Virus record (IMG/VR): IMGVR_UViG_3300049137_000157 | Span: 135,469-199,468 of that record | Length of the DNA stretch: 64,000 nucleotides | Direction: 5' to 3' (one strand) | From: a virus | Part shown: positions 1 through 59,389 of the stretch, piece by piece | Layout: each line of letters starts with the position of its first letter | Position numbering within the stretch: the stretch's first letter is position 1 | Position numbers and translations under genes: made by a program | The notes under the pieces: model-generated | Databases searched by the model: none | What the model was told of the DNA's origin: nothing | What the model saw: the letters and a program-made list of their open reading frames with translations, nothing else

Positions 1-860
1 ACACGGATGATGGAGGCCAGCGGGAGCTGGGACTTCAGAAGCTCGGCGAGAACCTCGCCGTTCTTCTTCGACTCCTTCATCCTCTGCTCGGCGGTCTCGG
101 CGCGGTCCCGGAGGAACGTGATCGCCTCGGCCAGCTTCTGGTTCTCCTGAACCTGCTTCTTCGACTCGCGCTGCGCTTCCTGGAGCTGCTGCGCCATGCG
201 CGCCACGTCGACCGAGAGCTGGTCGAGGCGGTCACCGAAGGTGTTCTTCATGGAGGCGACCTCGTTGAGGAGCGCTCCGGTGCCGGTGGTGGACGGAATG
301 TTCGACATCTCCGCGCGAGCGGAGGTCGCGGTCTGGTCCGCCGGAGGCGATGCCTCCGACGTGGCCGACTCGGTCATATTGACGAGCCTTCCTCCCGCTC
401 CAGCGCGGGTGACGACATCTACGGACAGGCCCTCGGTGATGGCTCGCACCATCCGGCCTTCGGCCGTTTCCTCGATCTGGCCTGCCGCACGAATCGACAG
501 ACCCACGACCGGGGCGAGCTGGCCCACGAGGGCTTTCGCGTTCTCGGTGAACTGGATGCGAGCGAACAGACCCCGCCCGTCCGGACCTTCCTCGAACTCG
601 GCGTCATCGAGAAGCCATCCCGCGATATCCCGCACGCTCCTTTCGGGGCGCTCCATTTCTTCCGACCCGGTCGGGTGGTCGAAATAGACGTGCGTTCCTG
701 CGCGGAATGCCCGAGGGCCGTCGCGGTGGAGAACTTCAGCGGGATAGAAACCGCTGGACCCCTGAACGTCGGCCTCGATAAGGCGAGCGCGCCAGATGCC
801 CTTGCCCGAAGACAGGTCGGGCGAGAGAATCGATGACTCCCGCAGCGTTTCCTGGCTCAT
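1..860 (-). CDS. capsid maturation (prohead) protease with C-terminal coiled-coil scaffold, runs off the window edge
   Basis: Not in ORF track; my translation from ATG 860 (GAGGAG RBS): MSQETLRESS..RARLIEADVQGSSGFYPAEVL..HVYFDHPT..ERPERSVRDIAG, then a coiled coil; directly downstream of the portal. Confidence 0.75.
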   Translation of the reverse strand, partial: MSQETLRESSILSPDLSSGKGIWRARLIEADVQGSSGFYPAEVLHRDGPRAFRAGTHVYFDHPTGSEEMERPERSVRDIAGWLLDDAEFEEGPDGRGLFARIQFTENAKALVGQLAPVVGLSIRAAGQIEETAEGRMVRAITEGLSVDVVTRAGAGGRLVNMTESATSEASPPADQTATSARAEMSNIPSTTGTGALLNEVASMKNTFGDRLDQLSVDVARMAQQLQEAQRESKKQVQENQKLAEAITFLRDRAETAEQRMKESKKNGEVLAELLKSQLPLASIIR

Positions 861-927
861 GCGCTCCTCACTCTGCAATGACGAGGTCAGCGTAATAGCA
901 CAAGCAGTAAAAAATCACGGCGGAAGA

Positions 928-2637
928 TTATTCGGAACCCTCGTCCCGAAGCTCGTGGTCGCCCCGGCTCATGGGGTCAGGCTGCTTTGGGGCCGCAGTT
1001 GCCCGGGAATTACCCGCCTTCAAAGGGTTGGGTGCACCCGGACCGCCCGTGCCGCTGTCGGGGTTTCCGTTGGATTCCCCGCCATTGACGGCCGAAGACA
1101 TTTCTTGGATTTTCTTGAAGAGAACGGGCAGATCTTCCATTGCCGGAGCCTTCGCGGCGAAGTCGTTCCACTTTCCGTTCCAGGCGTCCAGCACCATTGC
1201 CCGCGCTTCGTCCCCCGTGAAGAGTCCGAGACGGATCGCCATGTCGAGAGCCTGAAGACGGCGGTGAACCGGCTCCTCGTCGATCTGCGGCCAGCGAATG
1301 CGCACCTTCAGGCCCACCAGCTTGAAGATGGAGGCGAACATCTCGTTCATCACCTTCTGGCGGGCCTGCATCACCAGAACGGTCGAGGTGTCCAGGCTGG
1401 TGGCTGCCGCATTGTTGGCGATCGACGGGTCCTCCGTCAGGGCGGGCAGAGGGACGTCCAGCGCTGCCGCGATCATCGCCGCCAAGGGGCGTCCGGCGTC
1501 GAAGTCGACGGCCGCGCTGCGCCCGACGGCGGTGAGATCCTGACCGGCCCCCAGAACGGCTGAGGCACCGACCGCCAAGCTCTGACCCGTCGCGGGGTCC
1601 ATCCTCGGAGACTGGGCCATCGCAGCCGCTGTGCGACGGACCGAACGCGACTTGTCACTTGTCACCTTCCATGCAAATCGCGCGTACGCCTTTGTGAGGG
1701 TGGCGCAGTTTTCGAGGTATTCCTTGTATGCGCGGGTCCACCAGACGGCGGGAAGCACGTCGGGGACGCCCCAGCGCCAGCCGGTCAGGCGGTTGAAGGG
1801 GACGTGCACGAGGATCTTGTCGTAGTTGACCTTGTCCCCGGCTATCTCCTTCGGCCCCCGGCCTTTCCCGAGCTTCCGCAGACCGGCGGGGGTGGGGTAC
1901 CACTCGTCCTGGAAGGCGAAGTTGGAGACGTTGCCGCCCTCCTGCGACACCTTGTGCCAGGTGCGGCCCCGGGCGGACATCTTCGGGTTGGTGACCGGGG
2001 ACGTCTCGACCCCGGTGTCCAGGTCCAGGTCGAGGGTCCAGTCGTTCCAGGTGCGCCGGATGAAGAGCAGACTCTCCCGGTTCCCCCGCTGTGAGACGCC
2101 TTCGGACACCTCGTCGAAAGGGATTCGCTGGATCTCCTTGGTGCGTCGGTCCACCAGAAACTGGAGGTTCCCGTCGGTGGCCGCCGTCGACTCCAGTTCG
2201 AGCTGCGCCAGGGTTCCGGTGAGAACTTCTTCCACGCCCTCGGGGAGTTCTGGTTCGAGGTTCACCGTGCGCGGGCGTCCGGGGCCTGCCATGAATTGCG
2301 TCGGAACGACGGAGACGCCACTGCCCCAGATGTAGCCAGTGCGGACTTTCAGGGCCCGCTCGATCAGGGGATTGATGGTGGCGACAGCCCTACAGAGTTC
2401 GCTGGCCCGCTTCAGGCCGTCCAGGGTGAAGGAGTTCGCGTCTTCGGCGAAACCCATGAGGGGCTTCCAGCCGATGTCCTCCAGTGCGAGCTGCGCCCTG
2501 CCGAACTCCCCGGCCTCCCGCATCTCGTCGGATATGAGACCCGTGAGTTCTTCGTTCCGCTGCTCCAGGTTGGTCACGAAGGTTTCGATCTCGCTGATCG
2601 ACATCTCGTTGAGCGGCTTGGACGTCTGCATGGCCAC
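928..2637 (-). CDS. phage portal protein
   Basis: 569 aa between TerL and protease; NPLIERALKVRTGYIWG and WRWGVPDVLPAVWWTRAYKEYL motifs typical of actinophage portals. Confidence 0.8.
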   Translation of the reverse strand: MAMQTSKPLNEMSISEIETFVTNLEQRNEELTGLISDEMREAGEFGRAQLALEDIGWKPLMGFAEDANSFTLDGLKRASELCRAVATINPLIERALKVRTGYIWGSGVSVVPTQFMAGPGRPRTVNLEPELPEGVEEVLTGTLAQLELESTAATDGNLQFLVDRRTKEIQRIPFDEVSEGVSQRGNRESLLFIRRTWNDWTLDLDLDTGVETSPVTNPKMSARGRTWHKVSQEGGNVSNFAFQDEWYPTPAGLRKLGKGRGPKEIAGDKVNYDKILVHVPFNRLTGWRWGVPDVLPAVWWTRAYKEYLENCATLTKAYARFAWKVTSDKSRSVRRTAAAMAQSPRMDPATGQSLAVGASAVLGAGQDLTAVGRSAAVDFDAGRPLAAMIAAALDVPLPALTEDPSIANNAAATSLDTSTVLVMQARQKVMNEMFASIFKLVGLKVRIRWPQIDEEPVHRRLQALDMAIRLGLFTGDEARAMVLDAWNGKWNDFAAKAPAMEDLPVLFKKIQEMSSAVNGGESNGNPDSGTGGPGAPNPLKAGNSRATAAPKQPDPMSRGDHELRDEGSE

Positions 2638-2652
2638 ACAATAACGGTGGAA

Positions 2653-2958
2653 TTATCGACGTGTTTTCCGGATGGACGGACGTCCTTTGTTCAACCAGAT
2701 ATCCAGAGATTCAGCCAGCATTGTGACTGCGCGAGACAGGGATCCGACATTTTCCTGGGGCTGCTCAAGGAGTTTCTCAACAACTCGAAGATAACTGTGA
2801 CACACCTCCTGTTCGGCAGACCCTTCCGGGTACTCGGAGATCCGCTGTGATATTCGGCTTCTCGCGGCATGCGCCGGGTTGAACACGTTGACTCCCGAGG
2901 AGGTGACGAATCCGCATCTGGTGAGTTCGTCCTGCAAGTTGACGGGAAACGCAGACAC
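2653..2958 (-). CDS. hypothetical protein
   Basis: Fills TerL-portal gap; no clear RBS. Confidence 0.35.
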   Translation of the reverse strand: MSAFPVNLQDELTRCGFVTSSGVNVFNPAHAARSRISQRISEYPEGSAEQEVCHSYLRVVEKLLEQPQENVGSLSRAVTMLAESLDIWLNKGRPSIRKTRR

Positions 2959-2988
2959 GCCGTCAGCGGATAGCGGATCGAGGGTGGG

Positions 2989-5343
2989 TCAGTACGGCGA
3001 AATGGAGTACTCCGAGTCGTCGTCGTTCAGGGCGTCGAGGACGTCGTGCACCGAATCCGAAACCGTGTCGCCGACGTCCAGGAGGCTGTCCGAGACGGGG
3101 GCGACCGCGTAGGCGATGGCGTCGGAGTAGTCGGGGGAGCGGCCGTGCTCTTTCCTCATCTCTTCCTTGGAGAGGATGAAGAGGCGACCGTTCTTGATCT
3201 TGTAGAACACGATCTTCAGGTCGTCGGAAACCTTCTCGTCCGGATCCAGGATCTTCGCCGAACCGTTGCGCATCCTCTGGCGGAGCTGGTCGTACCAGTA
3301 CGCACGAGCGTTGCCGTAGCCGTAGACCGAGCCACCCGTGTTCGTGGGTGGAGCCGCCGAACCGTGCATCTCGTAGACGGTGAACCAGGGCTCCGGCAAG
3401 AGCATGCTCCGGGCGTTCAGGGTGTCGACAACACCGGCACCCAGGCCGACGGCGTCGACCCGGATCTCCACCCAGGGTGCCTTCCGCTCCTCCTTCAGCC
3501 GCTCTGCAATTTCGAGGACCTTGTACGCCGACGAAACGGTGTCCGTGCCGGACCAGCTTTCCTCGACCTTCGCGGTGACTCCCGAGTAGGACGCGACCAC
3601 CGTCTGGTCGGAACCGAAACGGGCGACGTCGACGCCGAGCCGGAGGATTGAGTGGAGCGCCGGAGCGGGGGGTTCGTCCCGGGCGTCGGCGATTACGTGC
3701 GGAGGGAAGAGACTCGACTGGGACTCCTGCGGGAACTCCGCCATGACCTTCGACAGGTAACGAGGATCGTTCTCGCCCCAGGAGTCGAGCCGGTCGGACA
3801 CCCAGTCACGCGAGACCAGGACCTCGTTCAGCAGACGCGGAACAGGCTCCCCGGTGAAGTTCGGGGTGGTGTGGGCCGGGATGGAGATCCGGTTCCACAG
3901 ATGCGCCGTGTTGCTGTCGAGGAAGTTTTTCCCGAATTCCGTGTTCCTGTCGTCCGGGTTACCGATCGCCAGGATGCGGCAGCCCATGTTGGTAGTGATG
4001 GCCTCGACACCCGTCCAGATTTCCTCCGGCACGCCACATGCCTCGTCCAGAAGAGCCAGGACGTACCTGCGGTGAATACCGTGGAACGAGTGACGGTCTC
4101 CCTTGGCGGGTTTGCGTCCGAACCCGACAATTTGGCCGTCTCCGAGCTTCCATTCGTCGGCCTGCGTCACGCGGCCCGGCATGGGGTAGTCGCCACGTGC
4201 TGCCGACGAGTGGTGCTTGCGAATCTCTTCCCAAAGAATCTTGTTCACCTGGGCATAGGTCGGCGCGGTCGAGACAACGATGGCCTGTCCTGGAGGCTTG
4301 GTGGAGACCCACCAACACGCGAGCACAGAGGCGATCATGGAGTTGTGCGTGGGTATCCCGGACTCCCCGCATAGGTAGAGATGATCCGGAGAGTCAACCT
4401 GTATGCACTGAACGTGACGGTCGCCAACGGGCCTCACGTTTACGACACGCCATCCATCATCTCCCCACAAATCAGATCCGGACAGGAACTTGCACTGAGC
4501 CAGGGCCTGTTCGTCCTGATCGACGAGGAGGGTCGTGGCCCTCGTCCCCATCAGGGCAAGGTGATGCAGGTGCGAACCGTAAGACCGCTCTCTTCGGTAG
4601 ACAGTGCGAATTCCCAGAGATTCCAGATGCCTCCTGGCTTCCTCCAGTTCTTGCACCCGACCTTCACGAGACCGCCAGAGCAGACTGGTCCGTCCGAGTG
4701 GGTCGAGCACTCCTCTTTCGCGCAAGAGTTCGGAGATCCACTCGTCCGGGTTCCAAAGCGGACCACGCGACTCCAGATCTGGTATCGAAGCGGGGATCAC
4801 ATAGGAATCACGTGAAGCCGCGAGTTCCCGGGTGGACAGATTCTTGGCTCGGTGATGCCACAGTCCCGTGTGGACCGTCACGCGAGCCCGATCCGAGCGA
4901 AGCTGTATCTGCGCGAATTCCCGGGAAGACAGGACCGGCCATATGTGATCACCAGAAGCCACGATCGTTTCCCGGACCCCGGCGTTCTCCAGAGTGACCT
5001 CGTACGAGTCGGCCACGTGGTGACCTGTGGTGGCCACCACAGGCACGACGCTCCGGTCCGACCCGAGAACCTTCATCCCAGGTCGAATCTCCCCCATGGC
5101 AACCAAACCTGACGGAGTATGAACGGGTTCGTCGAGTCCAAGAGCTTTGCCCGTTCCATGACAGGAGGCAACAACGGTCCTCTTGTTATGGATGAGGGAA
5201 TCACAGATTTCCTGCTGCTTGGACCAGAGGTGAACACCAAGAACATCTCGGGCCCATCCGGCGGGATCATTTGCCCATCCGGCTTGCCGAGCCTGATTGC
5301 GGAAGTATTCCTCGGCACCCGAAAAGATCTTCTCTTCCAGCAT
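2989..5343 (-). CDS. terL: terminase large subunit, intein-containing
   Basis: Start moved to ATG 5343 (GGAGGAG RBS); Walker A SCHGTGK|S, Walker B ALLDEACG, AIGNPD, RNase H nuclease motifs LGVDVARFGSD, VDAVGLGAGV, SPDYSDA. Confidence 0.95.
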   Translation of the reverse strand: MLEEKIFSGAEEYFRNQARQAGWANDPAGWARDVLGVHLWSKQQEICDSLIHNKRTVVASCHGTGKALGLDEPVHTPSGLVAMGEIRPGMKVLGSDRSVVPVVATTGHHVADSYEVTLENAGVRETIVASGDHIWPVLSSREFAQIQLRSDRARVTVHTGLWHHRAKNLSTRELAASRDSYVIPASIPDLESRGPLWNPDEWISELLRERGVLDPLGRTSLLWRSREGRVQELEEARRHLESLGIRTVYRRERSYGSHLHHLALMGTRATTLLVDQDEQALAQCKFLSGSDLWGDDGWRVVNVRPVGDRHVQCIQVDSPDHLYLCGESGIPTHNSMIASVLACWWVSTKPPGQAIVVSTAPTYAQVNKILWEEIRKHHSSAARGDYPMPGRVTQADEWKLGDGQIVGFGRKPAKGDRHSFHGIHRRYVLALLDEACGVPEEIWTGVEAITTNMGCRILAIGNPDDRNTEFGKNFLDSNTAHLWNRISIPAHTTPNFTGEPVPRLLNEVLVSRDWVSDRLDSWGENDPRYLSKVMAEFPQESQSSLFPPHVIADARDEPPAPALHSILRLGVDVARFGSDQTVVASYSGVTAKVEESWSGTDTVSSAYKVLEIAERLKEERKAPWVEIRVDAVGLGAGVVDTLNARSMLLPEPWFTVYEMHGSAAPPTNTGGSVYGYGNARAYWYDQLRQRMRNGSAKILDPDEKVSDDLKIVFYKIKNGRLFILSKEEMRKEHGRSPDYSDAIAYAVAPVSDSLLDVGDTVSDSVHDVLDALNDDDSEYSISPY
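4342..5145 (-). mobile_element. class 3 intein (268 aa) in TerL Walker A, with degenerate LAGLIDADG-like remnant
   Basis: Starts ALGLDEPVHTPSG after GTGK, ends PTHN before +1 Ser; block B GDHIW, block F VQCIQV, block G THN. Confidence 0.9.
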
Positions 5344-14730: not shown

Positions 14731-15464
14731 TTCTCCGTTTCGTCGACGGACTTCAGGGCCTCTGGGGTCGTATCCCTCAGCGCGTCGCACATGCCGCAGG
14801 AGTAGGGGAGGTCCGTTCGGCCCTGAACCAGGCATTCCTCCAGGTGTCGCTGACGGACGAGAGTCAGAGTTCCCTCGGCCAAGCGGGCTCGCGACAGGAA
14901 CTGATCTCGCTCCGCACGGGCGATGTCCCGCTGGGCGAACACCCCGACCCCCCGACCCGCCTCGTCACCAGCGATTTCCACCGGCACGTATGCAAGTCCG
15001 AGGCGCACTGCGATACGAAGTCGGTGATGGCCATCCCACAGTCGACCGTCCGACCCGATCAACACCGGCATGGTGATGCCGTTCTCCCGGATTCGTCGCT
15101 CCAGGGCGTCCAGATATCCGGTCTGGGCGTGACGGCGGTCGAGATCGGCCCACTCCTCGGCCCACGACCAGTCCCGGGATCCGCACCGGACTTCGGAGAG
15201 GACTCGGTCCAGCGGCCATACTTCGAGGCGTACGTTGGAAGATTTCTCGGAGTCTTCCGCTCGCCACTTTCGCAGGTTCTTGGCGTAGACCACTCCGTAC
15301 GCCAACGCCGAGGCGATGAATCCGTACTGCTCGGTAGTCAGCGCGTAGGCCATCCACAGGGCCTGCGCTCCTAAGCCGACCGCCCAGCCCAGACGGTTCC
15401 GGCGACCTGCCAGGTACAGCCCGAAAACCCCCACTGCCGTGAGGAGCCAGCTCCAGAACTGCAT
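14727..15464 (-). CDS. PnuC-like membrane domain fused to ParB/Srx-like domain
   Basis: TGATG overlap; N-terminal TMs (WSWLLTAVGVFGLYLAG), then IRENGITMPVLIGSDGRLWDGHHRLRIA. Confidence 0.7.
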   Translation of the reverse strand: MQFWSWLLTAVGVFGLYLAGRRNRLGWAVGLGAQALWMAYALTTEQYGFIASALAYGVVYAKNLRKWRAEDSEKSSNVRLEVWPLDRVLSEVRCGSRDWSWAEEWADLDRRHAQTGYLDALERRIRENGITMPVLIGSDGRLWDGHHRLRIAVRLGLAYVPVEIAGDEAGRGVGVFAQRDIARAERDQFLSRARLAEGTLTLVRQRHLEECLVQGRTDLPYSCGMCDALRDTTPEALKSVDETEK

Positions 15465-57813: not shown

Positions 57814-58161
57814 ATGTTCAGCATCGAGAAGCTGCGGCAGGAAGCCAAGTTCGTGGACGTCACCACATGGAGCGACGAGATCGAATACGCCCTCTTCCGG
57901 TTCCCGAACGACGAGATCGGTCATGCTCGCGCCGTCGAGTACCGGAACGCCTACAACGCCTCCCTGAAGACGGCGATGGGGATCACGGACGACGACCTGG
58001 AACTCCAGTCTCCCGACTGGAACCAGCGACCTGAGGAGTACGACCAGGCGATGCACGCCGAGCTGTACCGCCTCCGAACGGCGGGGCTTTCGTACTACGT
58101 GGGACCCCAGGTCATCGGCAACGACGACCCGATGCCCACCGACTACCCGCACGACCACTGA
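57814..58161 (+). CDS. hypothetical protein, paralog of previous gene
   Basis: RFPNDEIGHARAVEY...NDDPMP. Confidence 0.7.
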   Translation: MFSIEKLRQEAKFVDVTTWSDEIEYALFRFPNDEIGHARAVEYRNAYNASLKTAMGITDDDLELQSPDWNQRPEEYDQAMHAELYRLRTAGLSYYVGPQVIGNDDPMPTDYPHDH

Positions 58162-58481: not shown

Positions 58482-58491
58482 CACCCACGAA

Positions 58492-58553
58492 CCGGCACGG
58501 CCGAAACCCCTTCGGGGGTCGGCGGTATGGGGCCGCCCTGATGAGTCCGTCGG
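58492..58553 (+). ncRNA. type II hammerhead ribozyme
   Basis: GAAA 58503-06, stem III CCCC-UUCG-GGGG, GUC cut after 58520, stem I GGCGGU/GCCGCC, CUGAUGA 58538-44, imperfect stem II. Confidence 0.8.
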
Positions 58554-58568
58554 AGAAGGAGAGAAAAC

Positions 58569-59057
58569 GTGAAGAAGATCAAGGTTCGCCCGATGACGGG
58601 CGAGGAACTGCTGAGCCTCGGCGAGAGCGACTGGACCTACGTTCCGGATCACGGTCGCCGGGACGCCCTCGTGCCCGCCCGACTGCACCAAGGACTCCTT
58701 CCCGGCGAGGTGAAGGCCCTGGAGAAGTACATCGCCGACGGCGCGATCGTTCCTTCGTTCGGCATCCTCACTCTGTACGGCTCCCTGTACTCGGCACGGG
58801 CGACGGAGTTCTTCGTCGAGGATCCGGAGGGCGAGGAGCGCCCGGTGATCGAGACGGTCGGCACGCAGGTGTCCATGGCGATCTACGTCCCGGGCATGGA
58901 GGGGCCTGACGTGCTGGAGCGGATGCGCAAGGCGCTGCGGGCCGAGTTCGGCGCGGGTCTGCTCCAGCTCCGCCAGGAGACACACCGGCCGGTGCCGGAG
59001 ACGGGACTTCCTCCGGTGCTCGGTGTACCGAACGGGCACATGCCGGAACTCATCTGA
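58569..59057 (+). CDS. hypothetical protein
   Basis: aaggagag RBS; flanked by the two ribozymes. Confidence 0.7.
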   Translation: MKKIKVRPMTGEELLSLGESDWTYVPDHGRRDALVPARLHQGLLPGEVKALEKYIADGAIVPSFGILTLYGSLYSARATEFFVEDPEGEERPVIETVGTQVSMAIYVPGMEGPDVLERMRKALRAEFGAGLLQLRQETHRPVPETGLPPVLGVPNGHMPELI

Positions 59058-59058
59058 C

Positions 59059-59123
59059 CTGACCCGAGGCCGAAACCCCTTCGGGGGTCGCAGCGTGAGG
59101 CGCTGCCTGACGATGGCCGTCAG
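59059..59123 (+). ncRNA. type II hammerhead ribozyme
   Basis: CUGAC-(CCGA bulge)-GGCC-GAAA, CCCC-UUCG-GGGG, GUC cut after 59089, stem I GCAGCG/CGCUGC, CUGACGA-U-GGCC-GUCAG. Confidence 0.88.
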
Positions 59124-59143
59124 TAAACGGAAAGGAGACAGGG

Positions 59144-59389
59144 ATGTCGGAGATCAGGGTCGAGTACAAGGGGCTGGTGTACGGTCCGATCGATCTGACG
59201 GACGCGGACGGCGGCACGGTCTACATCGAGCACAAGAGCGTGGCCGGGATGCGGACCATCGTCACCCTGGAGGTCCGGGACGACGGCGGACTCGACATTC
59301 GCGAAGGCATCACCCCGGACGACGGTCACAGCACGCTCCTCGGCAGCATCAACCGCTACGGGATGAAGCTGGAGGGGAAGACGGAATGA
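59144..59389 (+). CDS. hypothetical protein
   Basis: acggaaaggaga RBS. Confidence 0.7.
   Translation: MSEIRVEYKGLVYGPIDLTDADGGTVYIEHKSVAGMRTIVTLEVRDDGGLDIREGITPDDGHSTLLGSINRYGMKLEGKTE

Follow-up and report, generated by a model that had tools for sequence, protein, structure and literature searches.

A type II hammerhead ribozyme in a phage genome and a subfamily carrying a core-complementary 3′ tail

Results

Genes and motif at the locus

The window analyzed here is a 64-kb stretch of DNA (64,000 nucleotides), which forms the right-hand part of a viral record of 199,468 bp with direct terminal repeats (IMG/VR: IMGVR_UViG_3300049137_000157). Judged by weak DNA similarity and synteny, it resembles large Streptomyces phages and similar uncultured contigs of 168-192 kb. 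On the plus strand, an ORF of 162 aa (58569-59057; GTG start, RBS GGAGAAGGAG, TGA stop codon at 59055-59057) is followed by an ORF of 81 aa (59144-59389; ATG at 59144, RBS GGAG at 59134-59137). The GC content at third codon positions is 0.85 and 0.90 in these two ORFs, but only 0.56-0.61 in the ORFs crossing the motif described below. Therefore, the flanking ORFs are regarded as real and the motif-overlapping ones as spurious. Five neighboring ORFs, including both flanking ones, had no match in Pfam or PHROGs. The two genes are 86 nt apart, and the motif (59059-59123, plus strand) occupies most of this gap. Between the flanking genes, no promoter-like or terminator-like site was found on the plus strand in a sigma-70 scan, which is uninformative for actinophage promoters. 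This and the common strand support a shared message, and the two genes are presumably co-transcribed.

Read again base by base, 59059-59123 agrees exactly with the letters and coordinates in an earlier note on this DNA, which had proposed a type II hammerhead ribozyme at this place, and all boxes of the core were found where that note put them, in type II order. The motif starts with CUGAC (59059-59063), which supplies the 5′ side of the outer stem II helix. Its letters are identical to those of the core CUGAC and its partner in the active fold is GUCAG at 59119-59123. Next come the CCGA bulge on the 5′ strand of stem II (59064-59067) and GGCC (59068-59071; positions 11.4-11.1), which covaries with its stem II partner GGCC (59115-59118; positions 10.1-10.4). 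The last nucleotide of the bulge, A59067, directly 5′ of GGCC, is nearly invariant across the family: at least 90% of the 34 sequences in alignment A1, whose upstream sequence was unconstrained, retain it. The GAAA core box (59072-59075; G12, A13, A14, A15.1) shows no change in 132 distinct relatives. The stem III hairpin, A-CCCC-UUCG-GGGG-U (59075-59088), consists of the A15.1:U16.1 pair (U at 59088), 4 bp and a tetraloop (CCCC-UUCG-GGGG at 59076-59087). Its length and sequence differ between relatives, and 6 of its 7 pairs show compensatory changes. C17 is at 59089, with the predicted cut between C59089 and G59090. The H17 position is C in 124 relatives, A in 7, U in 1 and never G. Stem I, GCAGCG-UGAGG-CGCUGC (59090-59106), covaries at all 6 pairs, 99.5% of its cells being paired. 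The second core box, CUGACGA (59107-59113; C3 U4 G5 A6 N7 G8 A9), is invariant at C3, G5, A6, G8 and A9. Finally, an extra U between A9 and G10.1 (59114), present in about half of the relatives, precedes the 3′ strand of stem II, and the GUCAG tail (59119-59123) ends the motif.

The motif fills the space between the stop codon of the upstream gene and the RBS of the following one, as had been pointed out before. Family members are typically placed in this way: 129 of 141 copies have a stem II strand that begins -1 to 6 nt past the end of the upstream stop codon. At this locus, CUGAC is present twice in tandem (59054-59058 and 59059-59063), and the stop codon of the upstream ORF lies within the first one. 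Related copies have only one CUGAC, which both makes the outer helix and contains the stop codon.

A conserved family of type II hammerheads

A covariance model (R2) was based on 138 relatives that had been gathered with a first covariance model, none of them from this genome. R2 scores the window copy at 71.6 bits (E = 4e-17), while the best unrelated score within the 64 kb is 15.7 bits. Since this model excludes the genome in question, a chance motif is rejected. The family models give the window copy 71.6 and 80.4 bits. Across the 138 relatives, 97.2% of the cells in the hammerhead structure are paired and 15 of the 17 pairs have changed on both sides, but only 36-40% are paired in controls slid by 1-3 columns. 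In the 34-sequence alignment A1, 97.4% of the cells are paired and 11 pairs have changed on both sides. The core is thus surrounded by three helices, all covarying, as in hammerheads; stems I and III are capped by loops and stem II is open, which is the type II topology.

Homologous loci keep the core nucleotides intact. C3, G5, A6, G8, A9, G12, A13, A14, A15.1, U16.1 and C11.1 are invariant in 132 distinct relatives, an invariance that is partly imposed by the search patterns and for which a pattern of the 3′ end only provides an unbiased check. This 18-nt pattern matched 50 distinct sequences in IMG/VR. In 47 of them, the match is preceded by hammerhead parts: GGCC-GAAA, then a hairpin that varies in length and sequence, then UH and another hairpin. 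The remaining 3 are chance matches. All 47 have GAAA. N7 is C in 70 of the 132 relatives, U in 54, A in 5 and G in 3. In blastn searches against phage records, the matches were confined to the element. Across 59058-59141 of the window, identity is 82% with Streptomyces phages Satis, Kradal, Quantum and EhyElimayoE, and Burkholderia phages Bups phi1, BcepB1A, BcepF1 and Karil-Mokiny-1 match the 3′ 40 nt at 95-97%, with unrelated flanks. The unpaired core letters are invariant in phages of hosts as far apart as Streptomyces and Burkholderia.

Rfam 15, the check that the earlier note had proposed, reported no hammerhead for this copy, and no match anywhere in the window, at the gathering cut-off, nor did a scan of 301 nt around the motif at E ≤ 10. 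The Hammerhead_II model (RF02276; gathering cut-off 37 bits) aligns relatives end to end at 20.9-31.6 bits, below its cut-off, and scores the second copy in the window (see below) at 22.7 bits. The sub-cut-off score reflects the seed of the model, not the fold. Core conservation, the covariation of three stems, the independent model and the sub-threshold Rfam matches all agree on a type II hammerhead, as first read from the letters. These comparisons show that 59059-59123 belongs to a conserved family of type II hammerheads, a kind known since 2011.

Stem II, the extra U and tertiary contacts

Stem II is mostly GGCC/GGCC in the family, and is also found as GGTC/GACC (7), AGCC/GGCT (5), GGAC/GTCC (4), GACC/GGTC (3) and, more rarely, GCCC/GGGC (2), GGGC/GCCC (2) and others. 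All these changes fit a stem II register that leaves the U following CUGANGA unpaired, as a bulge. Moreover, the close relatives L096, L097 and L099 have CUGACGA-GGCC without this U, so that it was rightly described as an extra nucleotide. At the position of U59114, 61 of the 132 relatives have U and 62 have nothing. Judged by this distribution, the extra U is a subfamily trait, and its occurrence in the family is independent of that of the tail.

The contact proposed between GG of loop I and CC of the bulge is not supported. Over about 150 relatives, complementarity is no better than in shuffled pairings: the best contiguous complementarity between loop I and the 5′ bulge is 2.93 versus 2.89 +/- 0.06 in randomly re-paired sets (about 150 distinct pairs). 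Single cases, for example UGUGG:CCACA in Burkholderia phages, may be genuine. A pseudoknot between loop I and the 3′ tail is likewise unsupported as a family feature (2.67 versus 2.65 in shuffles). Loop I has a U-N-A-N-G consensus, kept whatever the bulge. By analogy, the conserved loop and A59067 suggest a non-Watson-Crick contact similar to the reverse-Hoogsteen U:A contact seen in other hammerheads (PMC6155905).

A hairpin that can mask the catalytic core

As had been claimed, the tail GUCAG pairs with the 5′ CUGAC and closes stem II. Beyond this claim, the letters of GUCAG are also complementary to the catalytic CUGAC(G). The resulting 6-bp hairpin, CUGACG-AUGGC-CGUCAG (59107-59123), is the third hairpin of the MFE structure, and its N7 covaries with a tail nucleotide, N′.

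IMG/VR was searched for CTGANGATGGCCNTCAG, with both N left free. In all 67 distinct hammerhead-linked matches, N7:N′ is a Watson-Crick pair (C:G 56, U:A 10, A:U 1), although these covariation counts, like those of the wider set below, are phylogenetically non-independent. The viral matches without hammerhead have a Watson-Crick pair in 18 of 57, and 15 of the 16 possible combinations are present among them. In bacterial and archaeal genomes, which serve as a chance control only, 30 of the 120 matches listed are Watson-Crick, and none of these 120 has a hammerhead upstream. A wider set consisted of 158 parsed type II copies, in which the register of the tail was chosen on five fixed positions only. 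All five are paired in 82 copies, and 80 of these also pair at N7:N′, with all four Watson-Crick types represented. For several U:A copies, the nearest relative is a C:G copy. Thus, L046 (at 645) is U:A and shares 0.97 identity with L034, a C:G paralogue in the same phage, and the U:A copy L143 shares 0.91 identity with the C:G copy of the window. Since the nearest neighbors of U:A copies are C:G copies, the double change must have occurred repeatedly. In the less biased alignment A2, the N7:tail covariation is above all 500 shuffles (20 cells versus 11.1 +/- 2.2).

The tail could theoretically be retained for its role in stem II. However, of 76 tail-bearing relatives, 40 have a CUGAN ahead of the stem II strand, at a distance of 1-12 nt (mostly 3-5), and the other 36 have none. 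The extension of stem II therefore cannot account for tail retention. L098 keeps the core-tail pairing across an 11-nt loop. The full hairpin, with 6/6 Watson-Crick pairs, is present in 36 of the 132 members of the A2 superfamily, or about a third, and many family members have no tail at all. A strand test of the hairpin, with few counts, gave G:U versus A:C as 5 versus 1. Given the covariation of N7 with its tail partner, the hairpin at 59107-59123, which is exclusive of the active fold, is under selection; covariation thus shows that a core-masking hairpin has been selected in this subfamily. In the literature searched, we found no description of a 3′ tail complementary to the hammerhead catalytic core, and the supplementary files of PMC3088659 that were searched lack the tail motif.

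Energetics of the two folds

The nearest-neighbor MFE structure consists of three separate hairpins (-31.3 kcal/mol, versus -28.6 kcal/mol for the hammerhead fold). For the window copy, the masked fold has -33.7 and the active fold -30.8 kcal/mol. The corresponding ensemble is about 0.3% active and 95% masked in the nearest-neighbor model, which ignores Mg2+ and tertiary contacts. The findpath barrier between the two folds of the window copy is about 15-18 kcal/mol. On this modeling, the ribozyme could be mostly off without tertiary stabilization. Over the 82 copies, E(masked) minus E(active) has a median of -0.4 kcal/mol, and it averages +0.4 kcal/mol in copies with a 5′ CUGA versus -2.0 kcal/mol in those without. 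The isolated 3′ product folds into stem I and the masking hairpin, leaving the RBS unpaired.

A second copy and a variable cassette

A second type II hammerhead lies at 58489-58556 (plus strand; R2 score 40.2 bits, E = 1e-8), with its predicted cut after C58520. Together, the copies at 58489-58556 and 59059-59123 bracket the single 162-aa ORF (58569-59057). The second copy has CCGGC/GUCGG in place of the CUGAC/GUCAG outer helix. Orthologous copies of it are present in five related jumbo phages, which keep this upstream hammerhead together with the ORFs at 57814, 58173, 59386 and 59694. The 162-aa ORF, the hammerhead at 59059 and the 81-aa ORF have no counterpart in the syntenic stretches of these five phages, where the upstream hammerhead is separated from the homologue of the ORF at 59386 by about 400 nt. 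Because the flanks are kept and the block 58557-59385 is missing, the copy at 59059 lies in a variable cassette. As judged from this synteny, the cassette, 58557-59385, is bounded by ribozymes, and it fits the literature, in which hammerheads flanking small non-conserved ORFs have been described (PMC6155905).

The two halves of the second copy differ in their resemblances. Over the 23 nt of its 5′ half (58499-58521, from GGCC-GAAA to GUCG), it does not differ from the 59059 copy, and its 3′ half resembles the orthologues in the five related phages, which differ in their 5′ half (GGAC or GGAU and a long stem III). Stem II of the second copy contains a C:U mismatch, GGCC versus GUCC, left by the half-swap. 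This pattern suggests that the second copy is chimeric, through gene conversion or recombination between hammerhead copies.

Discussion

The data above are probably best explained by a type II hammerhead that lies in a multi-gene transcript and cuts itself, its two folds being near balance until the cut, after which the hairpin locks and caps the product. In the active fold, GGCC at 59068-59071 would pair with GGCC at 59115-59118 to make stem II, with U59114 bulged, and CUGAC at 59059-59063 would pair with GUCAG at 59119-59123, lengthening stem II beyond the CCGA bulge. With stems III and I as closed hairpins, the RNA would cut itself between C59089 and G59090. The tail could instead pair with CUGACG, and the resulting 6-bp hairpin would be incompatible with the active core. 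Before the cut, the masked and active folds would be nearly balanced. After the cut, the products would be joined by stem II alone, and the hairpin would then take over the core together with the 3′ side of stem II. As a result, the upstream RNA would be released, re-ligation blocked and the cut made irreversible. The downstream message would be left with a 5′-OH and two hairpins just ahead of its RBS, and the stem III hairpin, carrying a cyclic phosphate, would form the end of the upstream message.

Cleavage after C59089 in a multi-gene transcript is the most likely event, and hammerhead clusters in prophages have been reported to cut polycistronic RNA in vitro (PMC3088659). Moreover, cleavage in vivo was shown by cyPhyRNA-seq for type II hammerheads of Desulfovibrio vulgaris (PMC8782182). 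These are similar to the present element in their type II topology and phage-like neighborhood, and their short 3′ product of 39 nt may be compared with 34 nt here, from G59090 to the end of the tail. The message may be an early one, cleavage may be co-transcriptional and the 5′-OH may be protective, as the earlier note had it. As to the purpose of the masking hairpin, we infer that it either locks and caps or gates the cut, and at least two readings fit the data.

The second of these is that the masking hairpin represents a default off state, so that the cut would take place only when the tail leaves the core. Possible triggers could include the 5′ CUGAC, a decoy located 1 nt past the upstream stop codon that a ribosome terminating there would cover, as well as Mg2+, temperature or a factor. 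Such a conditional cut could tie the fate of the downstream message to the translation of the upstream gene. Several observations are consistent with this possibility. First, the masked fold is favored here by about 3 kcal/mol and the barrier of 15-18 kcal/mol means that the choice between folds may be kinetic, although all these energies leave out tertiary contacts. Second, the tail is under selection, and copies with a 5′ CUGA lean to the active fold (+0.4 versus -2.0 kcal/mol on average). Third, the stem II strand stands close to the upstream stop codon in those 129 of 141 copies. Finally, there is a viroid precedent, outlined in PMC1636495, in which an extra core nucleotide serves an alternative global fold. 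Gating fits the data about equally well, but it is rated lower, as unlikely, because many copies have no decoy (36 of the 76 with a tail) and many family members have no tail, which makes gating unnecessary for the basic role. A stricter version is a two-state ribozyme, on when the tail sits on the stop-codon-adjacent decoy CUGAC and off when it sits on the catalytic CUGAC, the choice being set by the terminating ribosome. We regard this version as doubtful. If true, it would constitute a built-in link between translation and mRNA processing, which has not been described for hammerheads.

Two further explanations are both very improbable. The hammerheads at 58489-58556 and 59058-59126 could excise a 569-nt RNA (58521-59089), to be circularized by the ribozyme or by an RtcB-type ligase. 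The two copies do bracket one ORF, their identical 23-nt 5′ halves mean that the excised ends could rebuild a hammerhead, and hammerheads with tertiary contacts ligate efficiently (PMC6155905). However, the orthologous upstream copy stands alone in the related phages, the paired copies in phage Satis do not share their 5′ halves, and the masking hairpin argues against re-association of the ends. A circular product is possible but unsupported. Equally improbable is a non-catalytic role of three intergenic hairpins, as stabilizers or as a nuclease or protein site, with the hammerhead likeness incidental or a relic: the MFE structure has three hairpins and Rfam gave no match, but the first MFE hairpin is not conserved while stem III of the hammerhead is, the unpaired core letters are invariant from Streptomyces to Burkholderia phages, the covariation of stem II is long-range, and G is never found at H17.

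The element preferred here as a self-cutting, locked and capped hammerhead can be compared with several known systems. It shares with the type II hammerheads of Rfam (RF02276; Perreault et al. 2011, PMC3088659) the CUGANGA, GAAA and UH boxes, closed stems I and III with an open stem II, an intergenic position between small non-conserved phage genes, and the presence of several copies per genome bracketing ORFs. Unlike them, the relatives score 21-32 bits, under the 37-bit cut-off, and this copy is not reported; stem II, described as 1-2 bp long, here consists of 4 bp followed by a bulge and an outer helix; and an extra U follows A9 and a core-complementary tail lies at the 3′ end. The 2011 consensus also includes a pseudoknot of at least 4 bp, in which loop I pairs with the tail that follows stem II (PMC3088659); this pseudoknot is not detectable here. 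Three features mark the variant: it scores below the Rfam cut-off, a U bulges out after A9 and, most notably, a core-masking tail has been selected.

One extra nucleotide between A9 and G10.1 is also found in the CChMVd (+) hammerhead (De la Pena and Flores 2001, cited in PMC1636495). According to what PMC1636495 outlines of that work, the extra A10 is tied to a conformation other than the active ribozyme, and in this one studied precedent the nucleotide at the same core position moderately lowered activity. As outlined there, the viroid hammerhead is of type III and its extra nucleotide is A, whereas here it is U. The extra U is part of the masking hairpin's loop, and about half of the family can do without it. 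In viroid and satellite hammerheads and in HDV ribozymes, a competing local helix likewise excludes the catalytic fold (PMC2396440; satRPV, cited in PMC6765202). Those RNAs, however, are replicons, and their alternative fold protects circular genomes or serves replication. In contrast, the RNA considered here is the mRNA of a DNA phage, and the competitor is a tail of 5-6 nt directly 3′ of stem II.

What the thousands of hammerheads in bacteria and phages do has yet to be settled (PMC6765202, PMC6155905). Taken alone, the window copy is one more example, but its family shows selection for a second structure that hides the core, which points either to a product-release and capping device or to regulation. 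A cultivable relative is available in Streptomyces phage Satis, which grows on S. lividans and carries two copies at about 146.4-146.9 kb (MH576962.1, 146,464-146,537 and 146,775-146,848).

Several other copies and matches came to light. A 67.6-kb viral contig (L196, IMGVR_UViG_3300038412_000035) contains 12 matches to the family model in about 5 kb (~160-5170). They form an array in which type II hammerheads alternate with small genes, and most of them lack the extra U and the tail. Elsewhere in the window, 15349-15403 on the minus strand is a weak match, at 16.2 and 15.7 bits with the two family models (E about 0.02-0.04). Its core boxes are broken, with GGAA in place of GAAA and CUGUGGA in place of CUGANGA, and it is either a chance match or a decayed copy. 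Finally, hammerheads of this family are present without annotation in GenBank phage records, and called ORFs overlap some of them. In BcepB1A (NC_005886.2; L003, 932-1471), the CDS of gp71, a 'pyrophosphatase', begins upstream of the ribozyme and traverses it; in Bups phi1 (EU307292.1; L002, 929-1117), the ribozyme is covered by a hypothetical CDS on the opposite strand; and in Satis (MH576962.1; L001, 1287-1505), the CDS of gene 248 overlaps the first bases of the ribozyme. These three CDS calls are probably mis-called starts or spurious ORFs.
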